Below, piece by piece: positions 4,048 through 28,090 of a stretch of 28,090 nt of DNA. Within the stretch, counting starts at the first letter, position 1. Each line of letters begins with the position of its first letter. Below the pieces are notes generated by a model, which ran no database searches, was not told where the DNA came from, and saw only the letters and a program-made list of their open reading frames with translations. This DNA is from a virus (Duplodnaviria > Caudoviricetes): positions 1 through 28,090 of IMG/VR virus record IMGVR_UViG_3300030708_000834; one strand, written 5' to 3'. A program made the position numbers and the translations under genes.

Positions 4048-7000
4048 ATTTTATCTTGCTCCTATTTATATAAGTTCCTTCATAAGCAATTCCCACGAAC
4101 TGAGACCTATAAGGACTATTGTTTTTTAAAGTTAATGTTAAGTTTTCTGTATTACTATTTACTCCAAATTTATGTATACCACTTTCTTTTTGAGGTACAT
4201 CAGAGCTAACTAATCCTACTTTACCTGTAAATTGTTTCTCATAAGTTTCTCTACCTTTGGTCTTTACTTCTAATGAAAAGTTTACTGCGTCTTGGAAACT
4301 AATATCAATAGATTTTAGATTTAAACGTCCTGTAGGATAATTTTTATTTTGTACTTGTAAGAAGTATGGAGATAAAGTGTATGAACTTTCTACTGGATAA
4401 CCAAAGAATAATACTCTTCCATAATAAGTTATATTAGGAGGAGTTACCCAAACATCAGTATATTTACTTAATTGGTTAATTACTACAGTTCCATGATAAT
4501 TATTACTACTATCATCTTTAGCTCTACTACCTTCTCTAGTATTAACAATGTCAACAGATGCAGTAGGTTCTTCTTCTAGATTATCTACAAAATTGTAATT
4601 AAATATATCATTGTTAGTTTCTGAATTAGCAACCCAAGCATATGAAGAAATACTTCCAAGTATATTATAAGTGCTTGAAGAATAGAAATCAACTACTGAC
4701 GTTCCTGACCCATCCTGAAATCTTATATCAAATACATTATTTTTATTTCCAAAAATATCTGTAGTAACTAATTTAAAGTGATTTAAAGAACCTTTAGAAG
4801 AAACTTCTTGAACACTTGTAGGTCTATCTCCTTGTACAGTTACGCTATTATTTATAGTATAAATATCAGTACTCATAATTTTTGAATCTAATGATGCAGT
4901 CCTAAAGTTTTCATAGTTAGTTATAGTATCTTTAGGAGTAGCTTTATCTGAATCATACAGAGTTTGTTGTACATTGTCAAGATAAACTTTTACAGTTCCA
5001 TCATTATAATCAACATCTAACCTTTTTTCTATTCCTGTCCAAAGATTATCAAAGTAAAGGCTTTCACTTCCATCAATATATTGTGGTTCAAAAGCAGTAG
5101 TATAAGTATGTGAAGTTATTATTCCACTACTAAGAATATTAGAAGTATCATCTCCCCAGTCTATAGGAACTCCTGTATTAGCAGCCGTATGTGTAACAGC
5201 CAGTCCTGTTATTTTTTGTCCTATAGTTCCTCCATGTACCCAAAAGTAATTTATAGTATCATCTATTTCTTCAAAGACTTTGTGAGCAGTAGAACTAGTA
5301 GGTATAAATTTAAGTTTAGTCCAACTAGTATTACCATCTTTTTGTATAGCAAAAGTACCTTTACTATCAAAACCTTGTGTATCTTTTTTATTACAATAAA
5401 TAACTGAATTATCTGATGTAGTACTATCAAAAGTTCCTCGAACAGTAAGATTAAATTTATCTCCTAAGGTATGTTCATCTAAAGCTATAGCAGCATTTAC
5501 TGTATCTAAGTCTTCAACTCTAGTAGTAGATGCTCCATTAAATGTTAATTTACCATTAGTTTTATTTTCAGAATGTTTAAATTGTGAGATATAACCTTTT
5601 AATTGTACACTAGCACCATCTTCATTTCCAATATAAGAAACTGAAGTTGCAGAAGAAGGTGTTAAAGAATTTGCTAAATCTATTCTATCTATAACTACTC
5701 TATCTCCAGAATCTAATATTGACCTATCAAATAAAGGTAAGTTAACTCCGTGATTAGTTACACTTATTATTCCATAATACCAAGTTATTATTATATCATT
5801 CCAAGCATTGTTAAATAAATTATCAATAAAAAACTTATTTCTTGTACTGTTTTTATATATTTCTAAAACTGCATTTTTTGTATTTCTATCTCTATAAATA
5901 TTTATTCTTTCATTACTAGCTTGTCTATTACCACCTAAAGATAAAACAGAAACATTGTCTCTACTTTCAGATGATAAGTATATTTTTAAATTAGTTGTAA
6001 ATTCATTTAAAGAACTTAAAGTTACTGCAGGTATTTTTACATAGTTACCTTGTACTCCTGCTACTCCATTACCTTTAAACTCTAACATAGCTTTTCTAAT
6101 AGATTCAGTACCATTAAAGTTAAGATTTAAATGCCAAGTATTAGTATCTGTTAAGCTATCAATTTCTTGAGAAGGTAAGATTCCACCTACTATTCTTGTA
6201 TAAGTATTACTACCTCTACTTGCTTGACTAACAAAATCAGGAAATCTTCCATCATCTCCTAAGCCTTTAATCTCATAACGATTAGTGTCACTATTATAAT
6301 CTATAAGTTTCTTAGTTCCTGTAGCTAGTTTATAAGCTTTATCATTACTACTGTTAGCATCTATTGATTCATTATAAGTACCATTATAGTCATCAATATA
6401 AGAGTTACTTAATATAATATCACTAGGAACATAAGACGTTAATTCTGGAACTCCTATAGTAGAAGTATATGTTTCTCCTAAAGAACTATCAGGATTATTA
6501 GCTTCTAATAATTGTGTAGGAAATATTTGTTTTAATTCATTATTAACAGTAGCTACTGCTAATAAACTGTTATCTAGTTCTGCTCTAAAAGGTAAATCAA
6601 ATTTAGTTACTTCTGTTGTATTATCTTCTGTTATTGTATAGTTAGGATTATCTTTAAAAACTTTTTGGTCAATTTGTAGTTGTGATGAATAATCAAACAA
6701 ATCTAATTTAGCTATATTAATATTTAATCCAGAATTTTCTACAAGATAAATTGTATTATCAAAGACTACTGCACCAAATATATCTGCATTAAAATTAAAT
6801 TTAGACCACGCAGATTGTAATTGTTTCTTATTACTTTCATAGTAACTATAAACGTAAATATTTTTAGGTTCTGAAACTGTTCCTAAGAATATCATATTTT
6901 TATTAGATATGCTAGTCATGTACTTTATATCTTTAGGAATATATGTATCTACATGTGCAGTTATTTCTATAGCATCTTTTACTAAGTTATCATCTTTTAC

Positions 7001-8542
7001 TACATACTTTCTAATAACAGCATTTGCACCTATATTATCTGCAAAGTATACATTACTACCTAATTTTTCAGGTCTAACATCTTCATCTACACTATAAGAT
7101 GTAATTAATTCTGTTCGAACAGTTGAAGGACTTAAAGCTTCTGCAGATGAGTTTACTAAAAATTGTTGGTTTTCTGTAAAGACTATTAGTCCATTACCAT
7201 ATACTTCCATATATTTAGGTCTAACAGAAAAGTTACTTCCTAAGAAAATATCAATAGGGTTATCAGAATTATTTATAATAGCAGAAGAAGCAAATAAATT
7301 AAAGTAGTCATTAGATTTTGACATTACTACACTATCTTGTCCTAAATAAACTAATCTATTTCTAAAGAACTGTACATCAATAATTGATTTACCTATAAAT
7401 GAAGGGATAGGGTTAGAGTCATCATCTCCTACTAATCTATTAGCATAAGATTGAGCTGACCTTTGATTACTTAATCCAGTATCACCAGATACTACAAAAC
7501 TAAATTCAGCTACTCCATCAGAGTTAGGTGCTCCTGTTCTAATTAAAAAGTGTGGCATTGTATCAGGGTCTATTTCAAAGTCAAGACCAGGCTCAAGAGC
7601 TTCTTCCCAAATCTGTTTGCTAGCATTCCAACTAACATAATAATTTGCTAAAGTGTTTTGTTCATCTACTCCTACAACATTTAAGACATATCCATCATAT
7701 CCACCTAGTTTAGGAAGTGCTGCTGCTGAAGAAACATTTTGATTAATAACATTTATCTCTAACTCTATATCTTTACGAACATAAATATCTTGAGTTAATA
7801 TATCTGTATCATGAGTTATTTTAACAATATTATCATCTGTTGTAATAGTTAAATTAGTTAACGAAGCATTTGCTTCAATAGCAGTTTTAATTGCACTAGC
7901 TATTTGTACAAAAGTACTAGAAGAAGTTATTCCAGTTGTAGTACAAGTTTGAACTGCTGCCGCTCCTTGTTTAATAAATATATCAAAGTTTGCAGTAGGG
8001 TTGCCTTCAACTGAAATAATAGCAGTTTGTCCATTATTAGTATTGGTTGTTGCATTAGTTTTCATTGATGTAACTTTTTCTGCATTACTTACAATAACGT
8101 AATCTTCTATCACGGCGGTTCTAATGCTTTGTCTTGGAGTTGTAGTTGCTACGTACGTATTAGTATTACTTCCACCTGCACTAGAACTTCCATATAAAAC
8201 TGTTTGTTTTACTCCATCTTTATTATAAACTTCTATAGGCTTAGAAGCACTATCAGTAAATACTAATATATAATCATCAGTTACTGCATTAACATCAGTA
8301 GCAGAAGCTTTGTTGTTTTTGTCTATCTTAGTAATAAAAGAATTAGCATTTATACTAGTATCAATAGGTTCTAAAGAAGTAATTAATTCTGTACCATTTC
8401 TAGTTTCTAGTCCTCTAGCTATACTTGATACAAAATTTATTTGTTCTTCTGCCTGATTACCTAACTTTACTAAGTCAGGTTGAGTTGACACTCCGTTTGA
8501 TAGTCCTGTTACTTGATGACTAAAGAAAGATTTAGATGCCAT
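4028..8542 (-). CDS. Tail tubular protein B (gp12, nozzle) with a large internal lectin-like insertion, ~1504 aa
   Basis: gp12 motifs GVSTQP, GLETRNG, TMPHFLIR, RLVGDDDSNPIPSFIG..FFRNRL, QSAWSKF and C-terminal GRLNLK..YEGTY. Start placed at ATG 8542 (MASKSFF), overlapping the gp11 end. Confidence 0.9.
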   Translation of the reverse strand: MASKSFFSHQVTGLSNGVSTQPDLVKLGNQAEEQINFVSSIARGLETRNGTELITSLEPIDTSINANSFITKIDKNNKASATDVNAVTDDYILVFTDSASKPIEVYNKDGVKQTVLYGSSSAGGSNTNTYVATTTPRQSIRTAVIEDYVIVSNAEKVTSMKTNATTNTNNGQTAIISVEGNPTANFDIFIKQGAAAVQTCTTTGITSSSTFVQIASAIKTAIEANASLTNLTITTDDNIVKITHDTDILTQDIYVRKDIELEINVINQNVSSAAALPKLGGYDGYVLNVVGVDEQNTLANYYVSWNASKQIWEEALEPGLDFEIDPDTMPHFLIRTGAPNSDGVAEFSFVVSGDTGLSNQRSAQSYANRLVGDDDSNPIPSFIGKSIIDVQFFRNRLVYLGQDSVVMSKSNDYFNLFASSAIINNSDNPIDIFLGSNFSVRPKYMEVYGNGLIVFTENQQFLVNSSAEALSPSTVRTELITSYSVDEDVRPEKLGSNVYFADNIGANAVIRKYVVKDDNLVKDAIEITAHVDTYIPKDIKYMTSISNKNMIFLGTVSEPKNIYVYSYYESNKKQLQSAWSKFNFNADIFGAVVFDNTIYLVENSGLNINIAKLDLFDYSSQLQIDQKVFKDNPNYTITEDNTTEVTKFDLPFRAELDNSLLAVATVNNELKQIFPTQLLEANNPDSSLGETYTSTIGVPELTSYVPSDIILSNSYIDDYNGTYNESIDANSSNDKAYKLATGTKKLIDYNSDTNRYEIKGLGDDGRFPDFVSQASRGSNTYTRIVGGILPSQEIDSLTDTNTWHLNLNFNGTESIRKAMLEFKGNGVAGVQGNYVKIPAVTLSSLNEFTTNLKIYLSSESRDNVSVLSLGGNRQASNERINIYRDRNTKNAVLEIYKNSTRNKFFIDNLFNNAWNDIIITWYYGIISVTNHGVNLPLFDRSILDSGDRVVIDRIDLANSLTPSSATSVSYIGNEDGASVQLKGYISQFKHSENKTNGKLTFNGASTTRVEDLDTVNAAIALDEHTLGDKFNLTVRGTFDSTTSDNSVIYCNKKDTQGFDSKGTFAIQKDGNTSWTKLKFIPTSSTAHKVFEEIDDTINYFWVHGGTIGQKITGLAVTHTAANTGVPIDWGDDTSNILSSGIITSHTYTTAFEPQYIDGSESLYFDNLWTGIEKRLDVDYNDGTVKVYLDNVQQTLYDSDKATPKDTITNYENFRTASLDSKIMSTDIYTINNSVTVQGDRPTSVQEVSSKGSLNHFKLVTTDIFGNKNNVFDIRFQDGSGTSVVDFYSSSTYNILGSISSYAWVANSETNNDIFNYNFVDNLEEEPTASVDIVNTREGSRAKDDSSNNYHGTVVINQLSKYTDVWVTPPNITYYGRVLFFGYPVESSYTLSPYFLQVQNKNYPTGRLNLKSIDISFQDAVNFSLEVKTKGRETYEKQFTGKVGLVSSDVPQKESGIHKFGVNSNTENLTLTLKNNSPYRSQFVGIAYEGTYINRSKIKYGGKVN

Positions 8543-9140
8543 AATTTGGATAATCCCTTGTTCTATGAAGTACTCCAAAGGAAGCTTCAGAGTCATATAA
8601 TATATTTGCTTGTTCTACGTCTATTTGTTCTCTACGAAATTCTATTCTAGCTTCTAGTTCGTCTTGTTCTGTTAATTTAAATAAATCAACATCACCTACA
8701 ACTTGTGAGCCAAACTTTCTAGCAGTATTAACTGTTATATAACTTCTTACTACTTGAGGTAAATCTTCCCATGTCAAGAAACTAACTAGAGTAACTTTTA
8801 AATCTTCATCAAATTCATAAGTATTATTTTTTCTATCGTAAAGTTTTTGCCCTCGTTGAACCACGTCTCGCTTACCTTCGTTTGTTTTTCTAGGAATATA
8901 AACTTTTAAAGTATTTGTAGGTAAACTAATATGTTTTGAAGAGTCCCTAGATAAAGTAAGTTCATAGTCAGTATTACATACTAAACCGATAGATTGTATT
9001 TTTCTTGAGTTATCATGAAGCATTTGACGAGCCATTAATGCGTCTGCAAATGCAGTATCAAGGCTGCTTACGGGACTTTCATTAATGTTTTGCAAACAAA
9101 CATTTACTGCTTCTAATTCTGTTTGAGGTAATAAATTCAT
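8532..9140 (-). CDS. Tail tubular protein A (gp11)
   Basis: TELEAVNVCLQNINESPV, VQRGQKLYDRKNNTYEF and WEDLPQVVRSYI..ARKF motifs; follows the capsid gene. Confidence 0.93.
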   Translation of the reverse strand: MNLLPQTELEAVNVCLQNINESPVSSLDTAFADALMARQMLHDNSRKIQSIGLVCNTDYELTLSRDSSKHISLPTNTLKVYIPRKTNEGKRDVVQRGQKLYDRKNNTYEFDEDLKVTLVSFLTWEDLPQVVRSYITVNTARKFGSQVVGDVDLFKLTEQDELEARIEFRREQIDVEQANILYDSEASFGVLHRTRDYPNYGI

Positions 9141-13196: not shown

Positions 13197-13253
13197 AGAT
13201 TAAACTAATAAAGGAGGATAGTTTACGGGATTATTTCCCTATTAGGGAGCATG

Positions 13254-14030
13254 TTAAATCCAATAATCTATTTCTTTTGTAGTAAAATCGTATTCCTTTC
13301 CTCTTAATATTCGTACTGCTCTAGTGTTTGATACTAAATATTTGTTAATAAAATTATCACTAGCATCTTCATCAATATATTTTCGGTATTGTTCTTGGTA
13401 TATTTCTTTTATTGTTTCCCAAATTTCTTCATCCGACAACTGGTCTTCAATACACTTATCCAAAATTTTAACAGCTTTAACCTTACCAATTTTAGGAGCA
13501 CCTTTAATATTATCAGTTGAGTCTCCCATAAGTACTTGAGAGTAGAAGAAGTGTCTTGCTTGTAGTTCGTCGATTTCATATATTTCCTTTTTATTCCAAT
13601 TAAAGTGCATGCCTTCTATTTGGTCTAAGTCTTTATCTATTGTACATATTATACTATTACTATCTTGAAGTAGACCCATTAAATCATCAGCTTCTAATTT
13701 ACTTTCTGTTTTAGCATCCCAAGATTTAGTCATATATTTTTTTAATACATCTACTAAAGTAGGAACAGTAGAAGCATTTCTATTATCTTTATAACCTTCT
13801 AGTTCATTGTATCTAAAGTTATCTTTACCCGATAAGCAAACAACTGCTTTGTCTGCTCCAGTAGTATCAAGAATCCATTGGATAAAGTTATCAACATCTA
13901 CCATAGCTTCTTCTGCTTTAGCTATAGTAATGATACTAGGTTCTCCTTCATCACCAAAGTCAATATCAAATTCATTAATGAAAGCAAATCTGTATGCTAT
14001 AATGTCTCCGTCTATTAATGCTGTTTTCAT
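13254..14030 (-). CDS. 5'-3' exonuclease (gp6-like)
   Basis: ALIDGDIIAY, NFR..YKDNR, LEADDLMG, IDKDLDQIEG and GDSTDNIKGAPKIGKVKA motifs. Start placed at 14030 (ATGA overlap). Confidence 0.93.
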   Translation of the reverse strand: MKTALIDGDIIAYRFAFINEFDIDFGDEGEPSIITIAKAEEAMVDVDNFIQWILDTTGADKAVVCLSGKDNFRYNELEGYKDNRNASTVPTLVDVLKKYMTKSWDAKTESKLEADDLMGLLQDSNSIICTIDKDLDQIEGMHFNWNKKEIYEIDELQARHFFYSQVLMGDSTDNIKGAPKIGKVKAVKILDKCIEDQLSDEEIWETIKEIYQEQYRKYIDEDASDNFINKYLVSNTRAVRILRGKEYDFTTKEIDYWI

Positions 14031-14500
14031 TTTGTTTCCTTGTAATATACTAACCAATGTGTCTTGCCTCCTTTACCACTTCGGTTTCCAAATAAAGGTT
14101 GCTGACTAAATATCTTAACAACGTCTGCTACTTTAACAGATTGTTCTCCCCACTTAAAGATTAAAGTGCCACCCTTTTTTAGTACTCGCCAACACTCTTC
14201 AAATCCTTGTGATAAATACTCTTCCCAATTATCCATTTCTAATGAGCCATACTTAATACCCATAACAGAGTTAACTACAAACTTTCTGAAAGGTGGGTCA
14301 AAGACTACTAAGTTAAAGCTTTCATCATCAAACTTTAAATCTCTAAAGTCCATAATCATATCGGGTTGAACTTTAAAGTTAGGTCTTACTTCTAAAATAC
14401 CTTCATCTGCTTTTCGTATGTCTAAGTATAAAGCGTTATCATAAGCTTTGTTAAACCAAAACTGTCTACCGCCACAACAAACATCTAATACTTCTTTCAT
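14027..14500 (-). CDS. Small class I SAM-dependent methyltransferase (putative N6-adenine/N4-cytosine DNA MTase)
   Basis: Motif I VLDVCCGGR, motif IV-like VVFDPPF, and ECWRVLKKGGTLIFKW. Confidence 0.78.
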   Translation of the reverse strand: MKEVLDVCCGGRQFWFNKAYDNALYLDIRKADEGILEVRPNFKVQPDMIMDFRDLKFDDESFNLVVFDPPFRKFVVNSVMGIKYGSLEMDNWEEYLSQGFEECWRVLKKGGTLIFKWGEQSVKVADVVKIFSQQPLFGNRSGKGGKTHWLVYYKETK

Positions 14501-18746: not shown

Positions 18747-19172
18747 TCACTCCTTTAACCACTCATCGGGCATAGTAGTTTCGGCATATTTAAATCCATG
18801 TCTTTCACACCATTCCCCATAAGTAGTTTTGCTACGTTTACTTAATCGTTGTTTAACTTTACTAAATACGAAACGAATGTCAAGGTCTGGGTATTGTCTT
18901 TTAATTAATAAATGTTTAACTCTATCTGATGAAACAAATCTACCTTTGGTTTCTATTATAATAGTTTTACCCGACTTAGTCTTAACAATAAAGTCGGGAG
19001 TATATCTATGATTAGATTCGGGTTTTACATAAGTAATTACTTTTGACTCATAACCATAATCGACATTCTTTTCGTCTAGGTCTTTTGCAAAAGAATGCTC
19101 CAAGCCCGAGCGATAACCATGCCTCAGACTTGGGTCATTTCTTTTAAACCTCTTTGGTTTCTTAGAAGTCAT
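18747..19172 (-). CDS. Endonuclease I / Holliday junction resolvase (gp3-like)
   Basis: GYRSGLE, YTPDF, IIETKGRF, DIRFVF and TTYGEWCERHGF motifs. Start placed at 19172 to avoid a long overlap with the ssDNA-binding protein gene. Confidence 0.95.
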   Translation of the reverse strand: MTSKKPKRFKRNDPSLRHGYRSGLEHSFAKDLDEKNVDYGYESKVITYVKPESNHRYTPDFIVKTKSGKTIIIETKGRFVSSDRVKHLLIKRQYPDLDIRFVFSKVKQRLSKRSKTTYGEWCERHGFKYAETTMPDEWLKE

Positions 19173-19764
19173 CGGGGTTGCTTTCAACTGCTGAGATTTT
19201 TTCTTCAGCAATCGCAGTACTAACGAATCCTTCTTCTTCTGCAAAGTCAGATACGTCTACCCCTTTCAATTCAATTACTTGAACTGCTGATAAGAAACAA
19301 GATACACCATAAGCATTAGCAGATGGCATGTAATATGGACGTGCGTTAAACGCAACTTTTAGTTTAGAACCACTACCAACTATTTCGCTAACAGTATTTC
19401 TTTTAGTGTCAACTATGGTAGGCTTACGCTCTCTTACTTCTCCATCTCGTGTAGTATACTTAGCAGTCATCTTGAATTTAAATTCAATGTTGCCAGTTTC
19501 TACACCATTGTCATCATACTCTCTAGTGTATGGTTTGTTAATACTTAAACTATCCCTCTTCTGAGGTTTAGCAGTTTCTAGTGCTTGCGTCTTTGCAAGT
19601 TCTAGTTGTTCATCTAATGTAGTCATCAATGGACTAGCATCTTTTTCTGACATAACGAGGCTAACATTGTACACCCCATTAGGGTCGAACTTTGTTTGCG
19701 GTTCGTTAATGAACACGTATTTACCTACACCCACTGGTGTAACTAATCGAACTATGTTGCTCAT
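19162..19764 (-). CDS. Single-stranded DNA-binding protein (gp2.5-like)
   Basis: TPVG..Y..INEP.TKF...G.Y, GSGSKLKV and GVSCFLSAVQVIEL motifs; acidic tail ending in Phe (ESNPDDF). Confidence 0.93.
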   Translation of the reverse strand: MSNIVRLVTPVGVGKYVFINEPQTKFDPNGVYNVSLVMSEKDASPLMTTLDEQLELAKTQALETAKPQKRDSLSINKPYTREYDDNGVETGNIEFKFKMTAKYTTRDGEVRERKPTIVDTKRNTVSEIVGSGSKLKVAFNARPYYMPSANAYGVSCFLSAVQVIELKGVDVSDFAEEEGFVSTAIAEEKISAVESNPDDF

Positions 19765-19815
19765 ACTTATTCTCCTTATAAGTTTATATTTAAGTAGTTA
19801 TTATAACTACTACTT

Positions 19816-22287
19816 TTAATGGAAGAAGTATTTACTTTTAAGTACCTCTTCAATGTTTAACTTTCCAAGCTTAGGAGGTTCTGTCTTAGCTCCTAATTGA
19901 CTCTTAATACTTTGAAGTATATCACCATTTTTATAGATGTCAACAAAAACTTTTCGTAAAATTTTATGTAAATCATCTACATGGTTTGCATGAGTACCAT
20001 AAGAGTCATGTATTAAACTAAACTCTCGTACTCCTTTATCTTCAAATAATCTTATTAAAGTTTCCATTAACATACAAGCATCTATACTATGTACAAAGTT
20101 AGGAGAGAAGCCAGACTTCTGTTTACCTTCGGCAGCTATATCTACTCTCTTTTGTATATGTAGTTGTACTCTTTGATTACCAATAAACAAACTTACTCTT
20201 TTCTTTTTACTCTTTTGATAACTTTGAATTACTGGGAAGTTTGTTAATGGAGTATACCATTTAATAAATTGTTGATTGCTTTCTTCTACTATAGTATCAA
20301 ACCAGTCCATTGTTTTCCTCGCACCCACAACGACATTTCTTATGGACTCGCCTAGCTTATCTGCTAGGTACACTGAAGCTCTAAATTTGTCTACTGTGTA
20401 TCCCTCTAGTTTTTCTTTAGCTTGTTCTAGTATTTGGTCTTTTAATCCATACTGACTTACACCATATGGAGTAGTCATAGTACCAGACTTAACTAATTTT
20501 CTATCTACTTTATCTTGCCACATCTGACAATAGTTTCTTTCTATTCCTGCTTCATCATCTAACTTTAATTGTTCTTTTAATTCTTCTGCTACTTCAGTAT
20601 AAATATCTTGTGGTTCTTTTGAGTCTAATAAGTTTACTGCTTTACCTCCTATCTCGTCAAGTGTCATAGCAGATAAATGTTGTAACCCATTACAAGTTCC
20701 ATCCATGTTAATTGGTAGATAAGATATGTTATCTCCTTTAGCATACTCTAAACAAAATCCAAGAAACTGAAAAGGACTATCAGCATCACACCAATAAGAA
20801 CACTCTAAGGGTTTTCTTCCACATTCAAGAATCCATTTTTTATTTTCTTCAAACCATTTTACTCTTGAATCAAAATCTATTTTATCTTCTCCATACGCAT
20901 TAGCACATCCCACTTTCCACCAGTACATACCTTTGTCTGTTAACTTGTAACCTCTAGAAAATTTTAATAGAGACTTACCTATATCATTTGATTGTGGATT
21001 TAATGTAGTAGGTATAGGATATATCCTCCCTCTAAAATCTAAATTCCATGGGAAGTATATCTCTTTGTATTTAGAATAATCTTCTGCTATCTGCATTTGT
21101 GAAAGTAAAGCTATACGTTTAGATGACATCTCTCTATTCTCTGCATATACATTAGCACAAGCTTTACTATATCTAGAAACTAAATCTTTATTTTCTTTTT
21201 TAAATTTTATCCATTCTTCTTTAGACATTTTATCCCAAGGTCTTGGAGGAAGCTCAGCGTTTTCTGTAGTAGGTAATCCTGCTATACCTCCACACTCTAC
21301 CCACAACGTCTTCATAACATCAAGCACCTCTGTGTTAATTGCCCAAGAAGTTTGTTGTGCCGTGTTAACAGCTTTCATAGCAATGGTTAAATCCTCCTGC
21401 CCCAAATCTCTGTGTTGTTTAATAGTCATACGCCTAATAAAATCAGGCTTCCAGTTTGGGTGTTGACTTAAGTAGCCACCAGAATATAAGCTAGTCCAAT
21501 TCACAGGAGGAACAACCATAGGTCTGTATGTTGGAGTAAAAAATGCTAGTAGTTCTGAGCTTTCATTTAGAAATTTTTTAATTTTTTCTGATAACGTAAC
21601 CACAAAGGCGGTTTTGTTTTTACCTACTCTTATTCTTTTGCTTTCAAACATTCCAGTTTGTTCGATAGCTAATTCTAAAAGTTTGTGACCTAGTCGTAGT
21701 TTATCTTCTTTATCAAGTGTATGTTTTAACATTCCTCTTTCACTCATGCACTTCTCTACAAATTCTAATTCTTTATTCTTATACGCATCTATATGTTTAA
21801 CATGAGTTTGAATTGAACGCAACATTTTTGGTTCTTGTTTTTTAAATTTTCTGTAGTTAGCTTCATGTATTAATGTTTCTGCTAACGCTATACATATAGA
21901 AGTTTGTTTTGCTAAATCATTATTAGTAGTTACTATATGATTAAACACAACCTTCAATGTACAAAAAGCATATTCAAATGGTGAGAGTTCAAGGCTTTTA
22001 AATATAGAACGAGTAGTAGCTTTTCTACCTGCATTCCAACCTCTTTCTTTTGTTGAAGGATATATCCAGTCTTCGATTGATTTGGATAGTTGTTGAGTAG
22101 AACGAGAAATAAGAAGTATGACTGGTTTTGTTTCACCAGCCCTACCTCTTTTCTCCATGTCCGAAAGAGCTTTCTGATACCTCTCTACAGTAATTTCTAT
22201 AGATTGGTTCTCTAATTCTTTTTGTTGTTTGTATAAAGGTTCTATGACAGTGTCATAGAAAGTATTGAAAGAATCATTACTGCTCAC
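19816..22287 (-). CDS. Single-subunit T7-like RNA polymerase (gp1)
   Basis: PMVVPP..W, LDFRGRIYP, DGTCNGLQH (motif A), RKLVKSGTMTTPYG (motif B), PNFVHSIDA and IHDSYGTH (motif C); GTG start with GGAG RBS. Confidence 0.97.
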   Translation of the reverse strand: MSSNDSFNTFYDTVIEPLYKQQKELENQSIEITVERYQKALSDMEKRGRAGETKPVILLISRSTQQLSKSIEDWIYPSTKERGWNAGRKATTRSIFKSLELSPFEYAFCTLKVVFNHIVTTNNDLAKQTSICIALAETLIHEANYRKFKKQEPKMLRSIQTHVKHIDAYKNKELEFVEKCMSERGMLKHTLDKEDKLRLGHKLLELAIEQTGMFESKRIRVGKNKTAFVVTLSEKIKKFLNESSELLAFFTPTYRPMVVPPVNWTSLYSGGYLSQHPNWKPDFIRRMTIKQHRDLGQEDLTIAMKAVNTAQQTSWAINTEVLDVMKTLWVECGGIAGLPTTENAELPPRPWDKMSKEEWIKFKKENKDLVSRYSKACANVYAENREMSSKRIALLSQMQIAEDYSKYKEIYFPWNLDFRGRIYPIPTTLNPQSNDIGKSLLKFSRGYKLTDKGMYWWKVGCANAYGEDKIDFDSRVKWFEENKKWILECGRKPLECSYWCDADSPFQFLGFCLEYAKGDNISYLPINMDGTCNGLQHLSAMTLDEIGGKAVNLLDSKEPQDIYTEVAEELKEQLKLDDEAGIERNYCQMWQDKVDRKLVKSGTMTTPYGVSQYGLKDQILEQAKEKLEGYTVDKFRASVYLADKLGESIRNVVVGARKTMDWFDTIVEESNQQFIKWYTPLTNFPVIQSYQKSKKKRVSLFIGNQRVQLHIQKRVDIAAEGKQKSGFSPNFVHSIDACMLMETLIRLFEDKGVREFSLIHDSYGTHANHVDDLHKILRKVFVDIYKNGDILQSIKSQLGAKTEPPKLGKLNIEEVLKSKYFFH
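22240..22260. repeat. Early-region palindrome, copy 1 (TTCTATGACA-G-TGTCATAGAA)
   Basis: Perfect 10-1-10 inverted repeat inside the 5' end of the RNA polymerase gene (encodes FYDTVIE). Confidence 0.92.
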
Positions 22288-22492
22288 GTTTAGCTCTCCA
22301 TTCGTCTAATCCTTGTTCGTGATTAGGGTCGAATAACTCTGAGCCACAACGACCACAGTTAGTTCCTATCTCTAGTGTACCAAACATAAGACCACAACTA
22401 CCACAGTAACCTGCGTGTTTTCCCAAACTTTTTGTTTGACAAGTATCTTTTTCTACTAAATAGTTGTAGGGTCGTAATTTAAATATACTCAT
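22277..22492 (-). CDS. Small zinc-finger protein
   Basis: CGSC...CGRC pairs; GGAGG RBS; overlaps the RNA polymerase start. Confidence 0.7.
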   Translation of the reverse strand: MSIFKLRPYNYLVEKDTCQTKSLGKHAGYCGSCGLMFGTLEIGTNCGRCGSELFDPNHEQGLDEWRAKREQ

Positions 22493-22524
22493 ATAACCAC
22501 CTCCAATTAAGTTATGGTTATAAG

Positions 22525-22552
22525 AGTATCATTATTTTTTAATAGTTGTCAA
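22525..22552 (-). promoter_or_regulatory. Host sigma70-type promoter for the Zn-finger/RNA polymerase operon
   Basis: TTGACA-N16-GATACT on the minus strand; the -35 lies within a 9-1-9 palindrome (22540-22558). Confidence 0.62.
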
Positions 22553-22561
22553 CTATTATTT

Positions 22562-22915
22562 TTATTTTTCTATATCTAATTCTAATTGATTAGCATTAGT
22601 ATCATTATCTAAATACCAACCTTTGTCTTTACATCTTAATATATATTCAGCGTACTCTTTTCTGCCTTCAAATATTTGTTCACTTCCATCAGTTACTTCA
22701 TTGACTGCTTTGTTACAATCATCTATCTCATTGTTACAAGCATCTTCAATAAATTTTTCTATTTTAAATATTCTAGTTTCTAACCACCTAACGTAGTTTT
22801 CATTAAAAGAATATTGTACTATTGGTTGGAACGACTTCTCACATTCTACAGTTTTTTCTTTCATTGGTTGTTCTCCAGTGACTGCTGTGAATGTGTCATA
22901 TATTTTTTCTCGCAT
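22562..22915 (-). CDS. Acidic hypothetical early protein
   Basis: 117 aa ORF with AAAGGA RBS; no recognisable motif. Confidence 0.6.
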   Translation of the reverse strand: MREKIYDTFTAVTGEQPMKEKTVECEKSFQPIVQYSFNENYVRWLETRIFKIEKFIEDACNNEIDDCNKAVNEVTDGSEQIFEGRKEYAEYILRCKDKGWYLDNDTNANQLELDIEK

Positions 22916-22946
22916 AATTATTTCCTTTGTTATTGTTAAATAAAAG

Positions 22947-22963
22947 CTATGACAGTGTCATAG
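22947..22963. repeat. Early-region palindrome, copy 2 (CTATGACA-G-TGTCATAG)
   Basis: Perfect 8-1-8; intergenic, about 30 nt upstream of ATG 22915. Confidence 0.92.
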
Positions 22964-23049
22964 GATTTTGGGTTAACCTATACACCCAAAGGTTTCATCG
23001 CACTATAAACTAAAGGTTATTATCCCCCTTTCTTTGTTAGTAGTTTAAT

Positions 23050-23088
23050 AAAAAAGTGAGTGTTTTTAACTAGGAAACAGAACACTCA
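23050..23088 (-). terminator. Possible intrinsic terminator after the GATase/amidoligase cluster
   Basis: TGAGTGTT...AACACTCA stem with a large loop, followed by CTTTTTT on the minus strand. Confidence 0.4.
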
Positions 23089-23142
23089 AACTGCCTACAA
23101 AGGCGTGAAAATGAATAAGGAACACTCCTTTGTATATGTGTA

Positions 23143-23994
23143 TTATACTATATCTGTAAAATGTGTGCAACAAGAATGACAAGATATAATATAGTTACTA
23201 CCTTTCTTAGTTTCTCCCAAGAAGGCTAAGCAATATGGACAGATAGATTCATTCAAATCTAACTGTGCTTGTGTAGATAAGTTCTGTACATTTACAGTGT
23301 TGTAACCATACTTTAAGAACGTATCTCTATCTTTCTTTTTCTTCTTCTTCCTCTTGGTATAGAAGTTGTTGAAACTAAAGTTATCATAGTACTTACCATA
23401 AAAACCCATAGTACCACAACCATAACTGTAAGTAGAATTAGAATACCAATTCCCATCGTCAGCTTCAGTCCACCCCTTACCAATCATAGTAATACCTCTA
23501 CTAGTAAGAATAGCAACTTTGTTAGTACCACTTACAACTGTATTCATAATAGATTTGAAGCCCTTGCCAAAGCTTCTGAACTGAGCTTCGTCAATGTATC
23601 TAGTAAGTACCATTGTATCTGATACCCCATCTCTAGCTTCTTCTCCAAACCTACCACCCAAGACACCATTGTGTATAAGTATCTTGTCAGTCTTACCCTC
23701 TGTCTTTCTCATTTGTTTGTAGGAACTAGTAATCGGAAAAGGATGACAACATTCTTTGGATGTACCACCATGAGTAGTAATCCTCATATGAATCAATGCT
23801 TCATCTTCTGTTCTGATATTCTGTTCCAACTCTTTGTAATACTCATCTACATCAAAGTAACCTTTGGCATACTTGATATAGCCATTACGTTTAACTGCAT
23901 ACCCACCCCCGTCGGGATTGTGTTCAAAAGAATTTTGTATATACTTCTTTGAAGGTATGGCTTGACCTTTCGGTTTAATTATTGCAATACACAT
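23143..23994 (-). CDS. Class II (Ntn) glutamine amidotransferase, copy B
   Basis: N-terminal M-C nucleophile, NPDGGG, HMRITTHG, CHPF, HNG and SDT motifs; C-terminal CPYC..CHSC. Confidence 0.87.
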   Translation of the reverse strand: MCIAIIKPKGQAIPSKKYIQNSFEHNPDGGGYAVKRNGYIKYAKGYFDVDEYYKELEQNIRTEDEALIHMRITTHGGTSKECCHPFPITSSYKQMRKTEGKTDKILIHNGVLGGRFGEEARDGVSDTMVLTRYIDEAQFRSFGKGFKSIMNTVVSGTNKVAILTSRGITMIGKGWTEADDGNWYSNSTYSYGCGTMGFYGKYYDNFSFNNFYTKRKKKKKKDRDTFLKYGYNTVNVQNLSTQAQLDLNESICPYCLAFLGETKKGSNYIISCHSCCTHFTDIV

Positions 23995-24004
23995 ACTTAC
24001 CTTT

Positions 24005-24021
24005 CTATGACAACTGTCATA
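24005..24021. repeat. Early-region palindrome, copy 3 (CTATGACA-AC-TGTCATA)
   Basis: Contains the amidoligase stop codon and abuts the GAAAGG RBS of GATase B. Confidence 0.88.
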
Positions 24022-25876
24022 CTTTTTTTCTGAAATAACTATCGTTAGTCAACACCTTGTGTAGTTGTTGATACTTCTTCTCTCTGTTGTGAACAAACGC
24101 TTTGTAGTAATCCCAAGCACTATCATTCATAACCTCTTGTTTAGTTGCTTGCATCGACCAATGAACAAGCGAATCCACAAAGTCAATATATCGCATCATA
24201 TGTATCCCATCATAATCGGGAGTAGCAAAGACACGAAACTCAACAGTATTGAAATTGTTGAAGTTGATAGCTTGGTATCTATTCTCATGATTATCTTTAC
24301 CGAAGTATTCCCAAGAATCTCTTGAATAGTCTTTGCTGAAGCGAGCCCAACTTGCACTGCGTCTACCTGCAATCCTACACACATAGGGTTTGTACCTATG
24401 AAAGAACCAATCCATCTTACGACACGTTTCGTTGTCCTCACCATACCCTATGAAACTTCTGTTGATATGGATATGAACACCACAATCATTAGACTCTCCT
24501 TCAGGGTCATGATAATGTTCTATCATGTCTGACGAAAAGGTAGGTAAATACTTCTGATGATACCTATGACTTGAAGGATGAGTAATGAACTCACAACCCT
24601 CTGATAGACTCCCATCATGTTGAATGTCGCCAAGTATTTTATATCTCTTACGAATGCTATGACAGTCGTCATAGTCGGGTCTACCATACCCATCAACCTC
24701 TAACTCTACGCCCATCAGCAAAGTCTTGAGTGGATTCTCTGATGCCATACATCTTATCATCCAAGCATCAAAGTTGTGGTAACTATTGATATCCCTTTGC
24801 ATAGCGTAAGCAAGAGCCTTATCTCCACAATCCATACATTTGTTGATATACATAGACGTTTCTTCTACTGCTTGACCACATCTACTACAGAAGCGAACAC
24901 CAATAGAAAGTAAACCCTCTTTACTAGCCCACCTACCATTGTATTCAATAAGAGTGTCTTTGTGAGTCCACTCATCAGTGATAGGACAACGAACAAAGTT
25001 TTCCTCAACGTGTTCGGGTTTGTATCTACTACCATTGATAATTGGTGCTTCCCACCTATGACCAATGACTCTGTCACTAGAGTAATCACAACGCCACCAT
25101 TGTGGAATTACAATGTAGCAATCTTCATACAACTCCTCAAAGAACTCTGGCATTACTATCATGTCGACTTGTTCTCTGAGAGCTGGGTCGTGAACGTAAA
25201 GACACAAATCATCCTTCATTCTTCTGAGCCATTCTTCATAGTGCTCACAACATAGGATATGACTTGTGATAGTCCTTGAATGAGTATAGTTACGAGCAAA
25301 GCAACGCTCTAGAGCATTCTGCTCATCTAGAATATTTAGTAACTTTGCATACTCCTCTTGGTCACTCGTCTGTATACCCATTTGATTAGCAGTATTTTCC
25401 TTGACTCTAGCATAATCATACTTGACCATTTTACTTCTTTCAGCTTCCCACTCTCGCAAGGTTAGATTAGATGCTAGTGTACCTACTTCTCTGAAGTAAT
25501 CATGGTGTCGTTGAGAATATATACCTATCAACTCTACTCGTTTACCCTCGTACCTTGCAGTATTCCTAGACCAACAGTCATAGTGTCTTACTCTACAGAT
25601 ATACTTTCTCTCTCGCATTGTAAAGAAAGCTCTGACTCTTTGTTTGTTATCCACATCAACTCTGTATCGAACATCACAAGATGAGCCATGACCATCACTA
25701 TCCATACAACAAGGAAGCTTCAAGAACTGATACAATTCTTCTAGAGTAGTAATATCAACTTGCACTTCGGGATAAGCACACACATCCTCATAACTTGGAA
25801 AGTTTTTATGGAAGCTTTTCCAATACTCTTTATCACGATTGTGAAAGTCTACAAGCTCTGTCATTGGCATAGTCAT
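24017..25876 (-). CDS. Putative amidoligase (COOH-NH2 ligase, glutamine synthetase/gamma-glutamylcysteine ligase-like fold) with a long Cys-rich N-terminal region
   Basis: GVELEV, HDGSL..GCEFITHP, CGVHIHINR, RYQAINF and TVEFRVF motifs in the C-terminal ~240 aa; CxxC pairs upstream. Confidence 0.82.
   Translation of the reverse strand: MTMPMTELVDFHNRDKEYWKSFHKNFPSYEDVCAYPEVQVDITTLEELYQFLKLPCCMDSDGHGSSCDVRYRVDVDNKQRVRAFFTMRERKYICRVRHYDCWSRNTARYEGKRVELIGIYSQRHHDYFREVGTLASNLTLREWEAERSKMVKYDYARVKENTANQMGIQTSDQEEYAKLLNILDEQNALERCFARNYTHSRTITSHILCCEHYEEWLRRMKDDLCLYVHDPALREQVDMIVMPEFFEELYEDCYIVIPQWWRCDYSSDRVIGHRWEAPIINGSRYKPEHVEENFVRCPITDEWTHKDTLIEYNGRWASKEGLLSIGVRFCSRCGQAVEETSMYINKCMDCGDKALAYAMQRDINSYHNFDAWMIRCMASENPLKTLLMGVELEVDGYGRPDYDDCHSIRKRYKILGDIQHDGSLSEGCEFITHPSSHRYHQKYLPTFSSDMIEHYHDPEGESNDCGVHIHINRSFIGYGEDNETCRKMDWFFHRYKPYVCRIAGRRSASWARFSKDYSRDSWEYFGKDNHENRYQAINFNNFNTVEFRVFATPDYDGIHMMRYIDFVDSLVHWSMQATKQEVMNDSAWDYYKAFVHNREKKYQQLHKVLTNDSYFRKKV
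24657..24674. repeat. Early-region palindrome, copy 4 (CTATGAC-AGTC-GTCATAG)
   Basis: One mismatch from consensus; inside the amidoligase coding sequence (YDDCHS). Confidence 0.75.
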
Positions 25877-26814
25877 TTGTTAGTCTCCTTTTCTATGACA
25901 GGTGTCATATCTTTTCTGCTACTCACAATATCGTAGGCTTGTGAGCTACTCAATCCCTCAAGCATCAGCTCTGTAACAGTAGCTTTCTTGAGCCACTTGA
26001 CTACGTTAGCATATGAATACTTGCCACAATCGGATACGTAATCTTTCTTCATAGGTTTGTTACTGTACACACAAATACCTTTGGATACTAGATACAAGTC
26101 ATCGCCCTCCAAAGAGTCATAGTCTTCCATGTAGATATTACCCACACTAGAATACCCATAAGAGTTTACCCACTTCTTGTTAGCAGTAGTTACAACACTT
26201 GGTGCTAGTGGTCTTTCGTAACTGTCATTGGAATACAAACAATCTTCATGTTCTTCCCAAGTACCCACAGTAACCCATTCTTCTTTGCCTTTGTCCAATC
26301 GCATATAAGCAAGTCTGCAAGGGTCTGAAGCCATGGCAAGCATACGTCTTGACTCCTTCTTGAAAGGGTCTAGACCACACTTCATGGTCATACGATTGAA
26401 CGTCATAGTATCGCTGACATCGTTGCCATCATAGGTTTCTGTTTCAATATCAATCATGCCATTGTGCATGAACACAGTACCCACAGAACATTCAAGTTTA
26501 GTCATCTGATAATATGACATTGTCATAGGAAATGGATGACATTGTTCTGCAACAGCATACAACTTACCATTCTTTGTAACGCCATGAGTAGCGATACGCA
26601 TATGAATAAACGCAACGTCTTCAGTACTCACATTGTTCTTTAGATGTTTGTAAAAGACTTCAAAGTCAAAGAAGCCTTTAGTTATTTTGAATCTACGTCT
26701 GCCTTTGTCTAACGTAGCCAAGCCACCACCATGTGAGTTGTGCATGAAACATCTTTGAAGCACTTCTCGATTTGGTAGCTCAACTCCATTAGGTTTAATA
26801 ATTGCTACACACAT
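25873..26814 (-). CDS. Class II (Ntn) glutamine amidotransferase, copy A
   Basis: N-terminal M-C nucleophile, NSHGGG, HMRIATHG, CHPF, MHNG and SDT motifs; AAGGAGG RBS; ATGA overlap with the amidoligase. Confidence 0.87.
   Translation of the reverse strand: MCVAIIKPNGVELPNREVLQRCFMHNSHGGGLATLDKGRRRFKITKGFFDFEVFYKHLKNNVSTEDVAFIHMRIATHGVTKNGKLYAVAEQCHPFPMTMSYYQMTKLECSVGTVFMHNGMIDIETETYDGNDVSDTMTFNRMTMKCGLDPFKKESRRMLAMASDPCRLAYMRLDKGKEEWVTVGTWEEHEDCLYSNDSYERPLAPSVVTTANKKWVNSYGYSSVGNIYMEDYDSLEGDDLYLVSKGICVYSNKPMKKDYVSDCGKYSYANVVKWLKKATVTELMLEGLSSSQAYDIVSSRKDMTPVIEKETNK
25893..25909. repeat. Early-region palindrome, copy 5 (CTATGACA-GG-TGTCATA)
   Basis: In the last codons of GATase A, abutting the AAGGAG RBS of the amidoligase. 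Confidence 0.88.
26513..26528. repeat. Early-region palindrome, copy 6 (TATGACA-T-TGTCATAG)
   Basis: Inside GATase A (PMTMSY). Confidence 0.8.
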
Positions 26815-26909
26815 TACTTAACCTCCTTGTTGATGATAAGATAAAGTATTAGTTTCTTTCTTCTATCTAATATCTTTATCCAATCAATGATTAGATAATC
26901 TATAAACAT
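26814..26909 (-). CDS. 31 aa peptide, first ORF of the early operon
   Basis: MFIDYLIIDWIKILDRRKKLILYLIINKEVK; GAAAGGAAAG RBS; TAATG overlap with the GATase A start. Confidence 0.6.
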   Translation of the reverse strand: MFIDYLIIDWIKILDRRKKLILYLIINKEVK

Positions 26910-26924
26910 AATACACTTTCCTTT

Positions 26925-26941
26925 CTATGACAGTGTCATAG
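26925..26941. repeat. Early-region palindrome, copy 7 (CTATGACA-G-TGTCATAG)
   Basis: Perfect 8-1-8; abuts the RBS of the 31 aa ORF. Confidence 0.92.
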
Positions 26942-26984
26942 CTTTTGTTTACAATACACACAGTACCCACAAAATATGATTGTG

Positions 26985-27060
26985 CCTTGCTACTCGTAGC
27001 TCATATTGACACAGTCTTTCAAAGCGTAAAGGTCGCCACAAGACTACGAGTAATGCAAGG
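26985..27060. other. Long interrupted stem-loop in the early leader (RNase III site-like or structured RNA)
   Basis: CCTTGC-TACTCGTAG (26985-26999) pairs with CTACGAGTA-AT-GCAAGG (27044-27060). Confidence 0.55.
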
Positions 27061-27093
27061 TATGGTCTGTAAGAATCGCACCTAGTTCAATTC

Positions 27094-27111
27094 CTATGAC
27101 AAGTGTCATAG
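27094..27111. repeat. Early-region palindrome, copy 8 (CTATGACA-AG-TGTCATAG)
   Basis: Perfect 8-2-8; about 50 nt downstream of the early promoter -10. Confidence 0.92.
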
Positions 27112-27160
27112 AAAAGTATTAGACACGTAGTAGATATATTCCTCTACTGTTAATATAAAT

Positions 27161-27189
27161 AGTATATCACAACAACCACAATATGTCAA
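27161..27189 (-). promoter_or_regulatory. Strong host sigma70-type early promoter
   Basis: TTGACA-N17-TATACT with an extended -10 TG (TGATATACT) on the minus strand. Confidence 0.82.
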
Positions 27190-27240
27190 CTAAGACAGGA
27201 AACTTTTTATTGTACCCACAAACTTCGAAATCTGAAAAAA

Positions 27241-27257
27241 TATGACAGTTGTCATAG
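27241..27257. repeat. Early-region palindrome, copy 9 (TATGACA-GT-TGTCATAG)
   Basis: About 50 nt upstream of the early promoter -35, flanked by A-tracts. Confidence 0.88.
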
Positions 27258-27266
27258 AAAAAAAAT

Positions 27267-27352
27267 GTTACAAAATTGTAATTGTTACAAAATTGTTATG
27301 AGCTCTCAAAAAGTTACAAAATTGTAATTGTTACAAAATTGTTATGAGCTCT
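27267..27352. repeat. Exact 40 bp direct repeat, two copies, 46 bp period
   Basis: GTTACAAAATTGTAATTGTTACAAAATTGTTATGAGCTCT at 27267-27306 and 27313-27352; each copy contains two GTTACAAAATTGT subunits. Confidence 0.93.
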
Positions 27353-27363
27353 GGAAATGAGAT

Positions 27364-27395
27364 AAAAAAAACCCTTACATTTCTGCAAGGGTTTT
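27364..27395 (-). terminator. Intrinsic terminator
   Basis: Minus strand CCCTTGCA-GAAA-TGTAAGGG followed by T8, 20 nt after the upstream stop codon. Confidence 0.85.
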
Positions 27396-27414
27396 CAATG
27401 TTACATTTTTGTAA

Positions 27415-27954
27415 CTATTTCTTTTTATCTTTTTTCTTCGTAACTTTCACGTCATAAAGATAAATTAAATCTTCAGTACTTCCGAAGATTTCTTGAACTG
27501 CAACTTTTGTTCTGTCTTCCTCTTCCTTAGTTAGTGTAACATCGCCTTCAAGAGCATCGACAAGATTCGCTAGTTTTTTAGCAATTTTTTCAATCTCTAG
27601 CGTTTCGTCAATTTTAGTGATTTTGTAATTTAGAGATTTTTTGGCTCTCTCTAAATGCTTATTCACTAAGTTGTATTGTTTACGACCATCACTGCCGTCG
27701 GGCATTTCCGACTGCTTTTTGCAACCATGGTTTTTAACAATTTCAGCTCGAGCCAATTTGCCTACTTCAGCAATAATTTTCAAACCCGATTTTTTAATTT
27801 CATCGGCTTTAGTGTGGCTCATAGAATTAGTAACAGTTTTGCATCCTAACTCTTTCAAGTAACCTAATAGCGTAGAGTCATGATTAACAGTATTCTCGCA
27901 ACTATTGACGATTAATTGTGTAGCTTTCATTCTAATTGTATCTAGTTTATTCAT
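27415..27954 (-). CDS. Basic, helical hypothetical protein (179 aa; frame open to 28080)
   Basis: The ORF track gives 221 aa from 28080. An internal ATG at 27954 (MNKLDTIR) preceded by TAGGA is the likelier start. No family recognised. Confidence 0.6.
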   Translation of the reverse strand: MNKLDTIRMKATQLIVNSCENTVNHDSTLLGYLKELGCKTVTNSMSHTKADEIKKSGLKIIAEVGKLARAEIVKNHGCKKQSEMPDGSDGRKQYNLVNKHLERAKKSLNYKITKIDETLEIEKIAKKLANLVDALEGDVTLTKEEEDRTKVAVQEIFGSTEDLIYLYDVKVTKKKDKKK

Positions 27955-28019
27955 TTTATTTTTTCCTAATGGCAAGGCAACTTCCACTTTAGAAGTAACA
28001 ATCCTTGCGAAATCGTTTC

Positions 28020-28036
28020 CTATGACAGTGTCATAG
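28020..28036. repeat. Early-region palindrome, copy 10 (CTATGACA-G-TGTCATAG)
   Basis: Perfect 8-1-8; shares the downstream flank CTTTTGT with copy 7. Confidence 0.92.
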
Positions 28037-28090
28037 CTTTTGTCGATTTGCTCATTTAGGATGTATTTCTCAACTAACATAAATAGATTA

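Follow-up and report, generated by a model that had tools for sequence, protein, structure and literature searches.

Short palindromes confined to the early arm of a marine T7-like phage as candidate operators for a phage-encoded protein

Several systems of short repeated DNA sites resemble, in one respect or another, an array of palindromes that we describe here on the early arm of a T7-like virus (IMG/VR record IMGVR_UViG_3300030708_000834), of which a linear fragment of 28,090 bases, 73% complete, was analyzed and is referred to below as the window. The RNase III processing stems between the early genes of T7 itself are long and diverse in sequence, T7 is not known to have an operator array, and shut-off involves gp0.7. 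In the gal operon, a host catabolic operon governed by a LacI-family repressor, the symmetric operators OE and OI lie on either side of the promoter, one of them near +50. The matS sites of Escherichia coli and Vibrio, which are bound by MatP, follow the pattern GTGAC[AG]N[TC]GTCAC according to the available part of PMC3603311, to which the available part of PMC11564523 adds nothing on the length of the spacer. Mycobacteriophages of Cluster A (L5, Bxb1, and TipsytheTRex) carry stoperators, many short sites in promoters and short intergenic gaps served by a single phage reader, and among relatives the distance between stoperator motifs tracks the distance between repressors (PMC9283540 and PMC6550527, in the sections available). 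Mycobacteriophages of Cluster O carry the 17-bp palindrome TGTTCGG-N3-CCGAACA, which the accessible text of PMC4351075 leaves without an assigned function and proposes to be bound by a dimeric protein. For T7-like phages, no array of this kind was found in the literature searched, a search that is thin on subscription journals.

The window contains 9 exact matches to TATGACA-N(0-3)-TGTCATA (mean 0.01 and maximum 1 in 100 shuffles) and a tenth copy, with one mismatch, at 24658-24673; the whole array falls within 22243-28035, and no match at up to 2 mismatches is present in positions 1-22200. The original prediction, made from the window alone, had listed ten copies, five with a centre of 1 nucleotide (nt) and five with a centre of 2 nt, had found no full copy in 1-22,200, and had proposed a pattern scan of the whole contig and of related phages against shuffled sequence; all of this was borne out, the array being enriched and confined to the early arm. 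A further, degenerate copy at 22886-22900 was dropped, as it has 3 mismatches, a level reached at five other places in 1-22200, and was not found at the matching place in either of two relatives (L002 and L001). The contig L157, whose RNA polymerase is 100% identical to that of the window and which reaches 4.2 kb past the window end, adds two copies for a total of 12, so that the array in this contig extends from 110 bases past terL to codons 11-15 of the polymerase gene, with irregular spacing (129-1236 bp). In the complete relative L002 (record G001, 38,789 bases, polymerase 97% identical to that of the window), 11 of 11 matches to the loose core WGACA-N1,2-TGTCW lie inside a 6.5-kb segment, 28,014-34,498, which likewise begins directly past terL and ends in the first codons of the polymerase gene. 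A scan of a viral collection with a 14-base pattern, covering 23 of its 64 parts, returned 122 loci, among which several full sites were present only in L083, a member of the window's lineage, and 31 of 38 relative loci are more distant phages in which the core does not form an array.

In form, the array is nearest to the Cluster O palindromes, without being a member of that group. As far as PMC4351075 is available, both have invariant 7-bp arms around a free centre, copies between and within genes (dozens in Cluster O), absence from the host, and a phage that is not obviously temperate. By contrast, the Cluster O sites have another sequence, a fixed 3-bp centre, and a genome-wide distribution in a siphovirus, and the single motif of these phages has not been linked to a candidate protein, whereas here the arms differ from theirs and the array is confined to 6.5 of 38.8 kb. 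By analogy, the array would work like the Cluster A stoperators, yet it does not belong to them either. A stoperator is an asymmetric 13-mer that points in the direction of transcription and is read by a helix-turn-helix (HTH) repressor acting as a monomer, and such sites are spread genome-wide in temperate phages. The sites described here are palindromes whose centre measures 1 or 2 nt, the central base being any of the four letters. They are restricted to the early arm, in a T7-like phage for which no integrase was found, and the early protein gp1, the candidate reader, gave no match to an HTH family. A motif that diverges together with a phage protein is common to both: five motif versions accompany five versions of gp1, with few independent contrasts among them. 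The likeness to matS lies in the core TGACA-N-TGTCA of the 1-nt-centre copies and in the clustering in one region; unlike matS, which occurs once per 49 kb (PMC3603311, available part), the phage array has approximately 1 site per 0.6 kb, a variable centre, and a motif that changes among sister phages. The locus resembles the early region of T7 in its gene order, in early promoters of the sigma-70 type that precede the phage polymerase gene, and in marks at early gene junctions. In T7, gp2 silences the host polymerase (PMC7852362, in the part available); here, profile searches for gp2 and Ocr gave no match, with the positive controls silent as well, and the supplement of PMC12361551 lists neither an RNA polymerase inhibitor nor a MarR regulator nor an integrase for G001. 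Like gal OE/OI, the phage has paired sites flanking a promoter, spaced by approximately 129 and 146 bp in the two pairs, between which DNA may loop. As a separate observation, an unrelated 441-kb virus record (L183:7760-8540) contains approximately 12 repeats with regular spacing of 62-64 bp, CRISPR-like in this spacing.

Comparison of L157 and L002 revealed strong conservation of the arms. Across the twelve sites, 0 of 168 arm positions differ, compared with 5 of 12 centres (two of which change length) and 53 of 264 flanking positions, the latter being an ungapped count inflated by insertions and deletions; synonymous change amounts to 27-35% in the three genes that precede the polymerase gene and to 12% in the polymerase gene itself. 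Among 40 of 180 substitution rows examined for run X6, which comes from another study, changes within sites affect centres only (L157:4131-4132 and 8275 shortened, 9333 substituted). Four copies lie inside genes, YDTVI and YDDCHS sharing one reading frame and PMTMSY and DMTPVI another, as had been read correctly before. Under synonymous resampling (300 rounds), the mean number of in-gene copies is 0.55 and the maximum 3, and the probability of keeping all four is approximately 1e-4 (0.081 × 0.058 × 0.24 × 0.090). Thus, the original prediction of a dedicated cis system selected at the nucleotide level, for which codon-level control and conservation in relatives had been named as tests, is supported on both counts. 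Its argument that the variable centre length favours a hairpin did not hold. The central base can be A, C, G, or T on one strand across copies, and the A and T that flank the centre are complementary in 11 of 12 copies although they would be unpairable in a 3- or 4-nt loop, from which we infer that the palindromes are two-fold sites read in duplex DNA. Collectively, the array is real, selected, specific to a phage lineage, and operator-like.

The motif is replaced among relatives. Phages with polymerases 71-73% identical to that of the window have the same early gene order and lack the window motif, and other palindromes occupy the same slots: GTAGACA-W-TGTCTAC in L167 (6 copies) and L003 (2 copies), which do not overlap and were counted as one phage on the basis of the shared motif and record prefix; GTAGACA-WW-TGTCTAC in L161 (6 copies); GTAGAK-N3-YTCTAC in L004 (7 copies, two as tandem pairs); and GTTGACA-W-TGTCAAC in L162, L165, L166, and L169 (2 copies each). 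No examined genome carries the motif of another lineage, and early gene order is identical in all lineages. As in the window, the GTAGA phages have copies on either side of gp1 and others directly ahead of the amidotransferase and amidoligase ribosome-binding sites, and the sole two copies of the GTTGACA lineage flank gp1. Confinement to the early arm is not absolute, since one L003 copy is located just beyond the polymerase gene.

The candidate binder of the sites, gp1 (27415..27954, minus strand), is an orphan protein of 179 amino acids (aa), basic (35 K+R, 28 D+E) and predicted to be all-helical. It is basic in all six versions, which have Y94, K99, L108, and K114 in common, and its transcription unit consists of a promoter-like sequence, the gene, and an intrinsic-terminator-like hairpin (27367..27396, minus strand, from a consensus scan), with sites on both sides. 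Among the three GTAGA phages, the motifs of which differ in spacer or inner bases, identities are 84-86% for the polymerase, 54-97% for other early genes, and 27-42% for gp1. The window and L002 share the motif, and a helix segment of 19 residues is the same in both of their gp1 proteins, which are otherwise 70% identical. Translation from an in-frame ATG at 28080 would lengthen gp1 by 42 aa. In three lineages (window 27955-28080; L161:320-418; L167:8524-8622) an ATG of this kind, giving an extension of 33-42 aa, coincides with or adjoins the position where transcription of gp1 is predicted to begin; gp1 may be longer and translated from a leaderless transcript, in which case its reading frame would contain one site.

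On balance, we lean towards the palindromes being duplex-DNA operators for gp1 through which host RNA polymerase is blocked on the early arm, a reading that takes up two candidates of the original prediction, operators for early-gene shut-off and a dimeric phage protein. Two sigma-70-type promoters are predicted. P1, upstream of gp1, is at L157:4173-4201, mostly just outside the window, and P2 (27161..27189, minus strand; TTGACA-17-TATACT, an 11/12 consensus match with TG) would drive the early operon. In L157, a site is centred at +52 from the predicted start of both promoters and a second one at -76 (P1) or -94 (P2); in L002, the P2 sites are at +52 and -95 (P1 is below the filter), and in L167, one promoter has a site at +56. 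Window coordinates of the sites, which are given without strand, are as follows. The outermost site in the window (28021..28035, 1-nt centre) is that at +52 of P1, 67 nt upstream of the ATG at 27954, and two sites with 2-nt centres, at 27241..27256 and 27095..27110, are those at -94 and +52 of P2, respectively. The next site (26926..26940, 1-nt centre) abuts the ribosome-binding site of a 31-aa open reading frame (ORF), 17 nt upstream of its ATG. Two are associated with early gene 1, one at codon 96 (26513..26527, PMTMSY) and one in the last codons (25894..25909, DMTPVI), 18 nt upstream of the amidoligase start. The copy with one arm mismatch (24658..24673) is at codon 402 of the amidoligase gene (YDDCHS) and is identical in L002, and the following one (24006..24021) forms the amidoligase stop codon, 12 nt upstream of the next start. 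A site at 22948..22962, with a T-rich run behind it, precedes the gene for a 117-aa protein by 33 nt, and the last (22243..22257) covers codons 11-15 of the RNA polymerase gene (YDTVI), its arms extending to 9 bp (22240-22260). Overall, start codons lie 12-33 nt downstream of four window copies.

In the mechanism that we propose, gp1 would be made first, from its own unit, and would bind the palindromes as a dimer; the paired sites (at approximately -76 or -94 and at +52) would repress both sigma-70-type promoters through looping or as a roadblock, and repression of P1 would make gp1 autoregulatory. The sites in front of ribosome-binding sites and within genes would serve as further roadblocks as far as the polymerase gene, so that host polymerase would be blocked on the early arm once the phage polymerase had been made. 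The gp1 array may thus stand in for the host-polymerase inhibitor of T7, which this phage seems to lack. A different function, that of bidirectional sigma-70 promoters, was rejected for the sites: in five genomes, the occurrence of a -10 hexamer 16-18 nt behind the TTGACA-like half-site scores as background, and a single antisense 5/6 match to the -10 element is found, at the 26926 site.

Several observations weigh against operators for gp1. The protein has no match in Pfam, PHROG, or PDB sequence searches, and its structural model (predicted template modelling score 0.48, mean predicted local distance difference test 62), most confident at residues 50-110, has no recognizable DNA-binding fold. 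No HTH family matched gp1 and the low-confidence model gave no clear fold match: Foldseek returned nothing at E 0.001, and the best hits of a VIA fold search (Z 7.9) are generic helical bundles. The only Atlas hits were unnamed viral clusters, at 0.90 and with low recognition, P0004 gave none, and a row for DUF3102 (0.77) is no more than a lead; a wider profile search recovered only 5 proteins, all from these lineages. Homology among the versions is itself weak, the window gp1 matching those of L167 and L165 with E values of 8e-5 to 0.006 and those of L161 and L004 not detectably. Nor is gp1 uniquely variable: within the window's lineage the amidoligase is less conserved (64% versus 70%), and among the GTAGA phages one late gene is equally variable (39%). 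In L161, L004, and L162, the spacing of sites and promoters departs from +52, and in the window's lineage no site overlaps a -35 or -10 box. T-rich runs on the antisense strand, present at 22 of 47 sites against a background of 16% (sense strand, 10 of 47 against 9%), fit terminators too. Finally, only three main lineages were found, and kin share both motif and gp1, which leaves few independent contrasts.

A function in RNA, as weak and mainly antisense terminators, as pause sites, or as processing or stabilising stems ahead of early genes, is unlikely in our view, even though each copy can fold into a stem of 6-10 bp (-4.0 to -11.1 kcal/mol) and four copies have a start codon a short distance downstream. 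Terminators need no identical sequence, and RNase III substrates are far longer than these stems. The antisense T-rich runs speak for termination, most of all in L167 and L003 (8 of 8 sites), but L157 has them at only 5 of 12 sites, with sense runs at 3 of 12, and intergenic DNA is AT-rich regardless; mid-gene copies are kept where no start follows, and a hairpin would not explain the complementary but unpairable A and T beside a free central base. The GTAGACA 17-mer does occur in a terminator-like setting, between A and T tracts, in gut Bacilli, and the inner changes of L004 give G-U on the transcript in 3 of 7 cases. Rfam covariance models matched none of the sites in window positions 19000-28090 (a sub-threshold mir-96 over a second motif was the only return). 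A glutamine riboswitch of L002 (35.7 bits against a cut-off of 35), in turn, has the outermost array copy (L002:3557) in its variable stem, which would suit a hairpin; as the corresponding riboswitch of L167 (49.9 bits) has an ordinary stem, the site looks as if it had been added where any hairpin is tolerated. The selection and covariation data fit equally well with a phage protein, gp1 or another, that binds the sites for a physical task on the leading DNA, which it might coat, protect, pull in, or position. The array stops where the phage polymerase would take over DNA entry, the spacing is irregular, several sites are distant from promoters, and GCNGC is avoided in the arm. We nevertheless rate such a role slightly below one in RNA, given that sites beside ribosome-binding sites and at +52 of both promoters suggest transcription, that the GTTGACA lineage has two sites only, and that gp1 cannot protect its own coding DNA at entry because it must first be expressed.

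Still less probable is that the sites recruit or titrate a dimeric host regulator, for instance a TetR-like one, and that the changes of motif mirror changes of host. The GTAGACA 17-mer stands directly before genes with what we take to be TetR-like N-termini in 11 of its 64 bacterial matches, and the window gp1 lacks a known DNA-binding fold. No credible host is listed for G001, for which the top prediction scores 0.146 in the available part of PMC12361551. However, phages with polymerases 84-86% identical differ in spacer and inner bases. Besides, no enrichment was seen in bacterial genomes, a check that the original prediction had proposed for candidate host chromosomes: in 185,579 bacterial species, the window 17-mer has 26 matches, all single, with no genome enriched, and the 64 matches of the GTAGACA 17-mer are scattered, with at most 3 per genome (3 in a soil actinobacterium). 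Both exact 17-mers are thus dispersed over unrelated taxa, a result that covers exact 17-mers and leaves room for a looser host motif. Sites for recombination or cassette exchange among early genes are very improbable. In the GTAGA phages, sites do bracket nearly all early genes, a 38-aa ORF directly behind a site in L165 and L162 is absent in L169, and the Cluster O repeats show deletions between copies (PMC4351075, available part). Yet gene order is constant across lineages, recombined in-gene copies would break genes, contigs from 4 runs contain no site-to-site joint (contigs drop rare forms), and a tyrosine integrase (PF00589) has no match in complete G001, the control having matched in 14 of 14. 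Least credible of all are matS mimics that recruit host MatP. The original prediction had matched the core to matS at 11 of 13 positions, which is arithmetically right for the 1-nt-centre copies and does not make them MatP sites: none of 12 sequences examined contains an exact matS, the two mismatches are fixed in all copies, invariance runs 1-2 bases past the 13-mer, five of the ten window copies have a 2-nt centre against the fixed 13 bp of matS, and sister phages carry AGACA or AGAG arms. Moreover, enterobacterial prophages avoid matS (PMC3603311, as far as available), and there is no sign of a MatP-bearing host.

Control without repressors has its textbook example in T7-like phages, whose early genes are transcribed by host polymerase until a protein inhibits that enzyme. 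If gp1 acts through the palindromes, a self-made regulator with a dozen operators would represent another way to end early transcription, one that leaves the host polymerase working, and an orphan helical fold that reads across a 1- or 2-bp spacer would constitute a new DNA-binding family. The five pairs of motif and gp1 provide a ready specificity matrix that depends on neither host nor phage culture. A bolder extension, possible but doubtful, is that gp1 and the palindromes form an immunity module that diversifies rapidly among T7-like phages that do not integrate, and that DNA entry itself is its target. Because transcription by host polymerase draws the early arm into the cell, gp1 supplied by a resident phage would clamp the first 6 kb of any newcomer that shares its specificity. 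Alternatively, gp1 might hold the genome of its own phage in a dormant state ahead of polymerase gene transcription. The arm sequence and spacer of each lineage would then define its immunity type, and such types would account for the ability of marine T7-like phages that do not integrate to keep out kin or to outlast poor conditions. No serine integrase or parAB gene was seen among the early ORFs, with no profile search aimed at either.

The minus strand of the window encodes all of its long genes, which make up a set like that of T7 (RNA polymerase, single-stranded DNA-binding protein, endonuclease, primase-helicase, DNA polymerase, exonuclease, portal, scaffold, capsid, and tail genes); with a single-subunit RNA polymerase and T7-type replication and virion genes on one strand, the virus is Autographiviridae-like. 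In the early arm, gp1, the terminator-like stem, and P2 are followed by a tiny ORF, by two amidotransferase-like genes with an amidoligase-like gene between them, by the genes for an acidic 117-aa and a cysteine-rich 71-aa protein, and by the polymerase gene. Early gene 1 (25873..26814) has no Pfam match and, judging by its N-terminal Cys motif, is presumably a class-II glutamine amidotransferase; the amidoligase-like gene (24017..25876) matches phrog_7469 (E 1.7e-8), and the product of the second amidotransferase-like gene (23143..23994) is 31% identical to the first. The polymerase, of the T7 type (19816..22287; PF00940, E 7.6e-102, and PF14700), marks the end of the array. The window stretch is present in marine metagenome runs, and no RNA dataset is among the runs listed. 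Its closest GenBank phages by polymerase are approximately 32% identical, and genome_contigs contains no polymerase relative. G001 is catalogued as AG-unclassified within marine Autographiviridae (PMC12361551, available part).

Further features of these sequences were recorded beside the array. That the early arm is the first-injected end, as had been stated, is suggested by T7-like gene order, and the lack of GCNGC there is consistent with it: GCNGC occurs 0 times in the early arm (22201-28090) and 31 times elsewhere in the window, which suggests restriction avoidance in first-entering DNA, and GATC, GGCC, CGCG, and GCGC are wholly absent from positions 1-28090. A second palindrome, TTACA-N4-TGTAA, has 6 matches with at most 1 mismatch at 27268..27414 (no strand assigned), partly within a 46-bp direct repeat, surrounds the gp1 terminator, and has 4 matches in L002, whereas repeats of TAAAG-N-CTTTA are found near and over the first promoters of the GTTGACA lineage. 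TTACA-N4-TGTAA is possibly a second protein site or part of terminal short repeats. The glutamine riboswitch (RF01739), which is outside the window, was found at L002:3545-3616 and L167:7933-7990 and, below threshold, at L157:3598-3669, after terL and a putative phage-polymerase promoter and before a tiny peptide ORF. The early arm of the riboswitch phages encodes the two amidotransferase-like proteins and the amidoligase, and the riboswitch may tie the phage to the nitrogen status of its host.

Among bacteria, the pattern AGTAGACA-W-TGTCTACT located directly before the presumed TetR-like genes (L204, L206, L213, L220, L225, L226, L240, L244, L255, L258, and L260) is carried by actinobacteria, streptococci, and one spirochaete bin and is likely an autoregulatory operator family. 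The putative phage-polymerase promoter, with the core TGCTCCCTAATAGG, is present in only 2-3 copies per examined sequence (window approximately 13238-13263, minus strand; L157:3508-3533; L162:3841, 12043, and 18819); a copy directly after the polymerase gene is found in L161, L004, and L162 and is missing in the window, L002, and L003. The tail nozzle protein (4028-8596), at 1522 aa, is approximately twice the length of its profile, PF25675, which covers residues 25-689 and leaves a long, uncharacterized C-terminal part. Finally, a DNA methyltransferase gene (window 14027-14500, L161:13598-14071) is 98% identical in the window and the distant L161 and has no match in the close relative L002, which points to a recent exchange.

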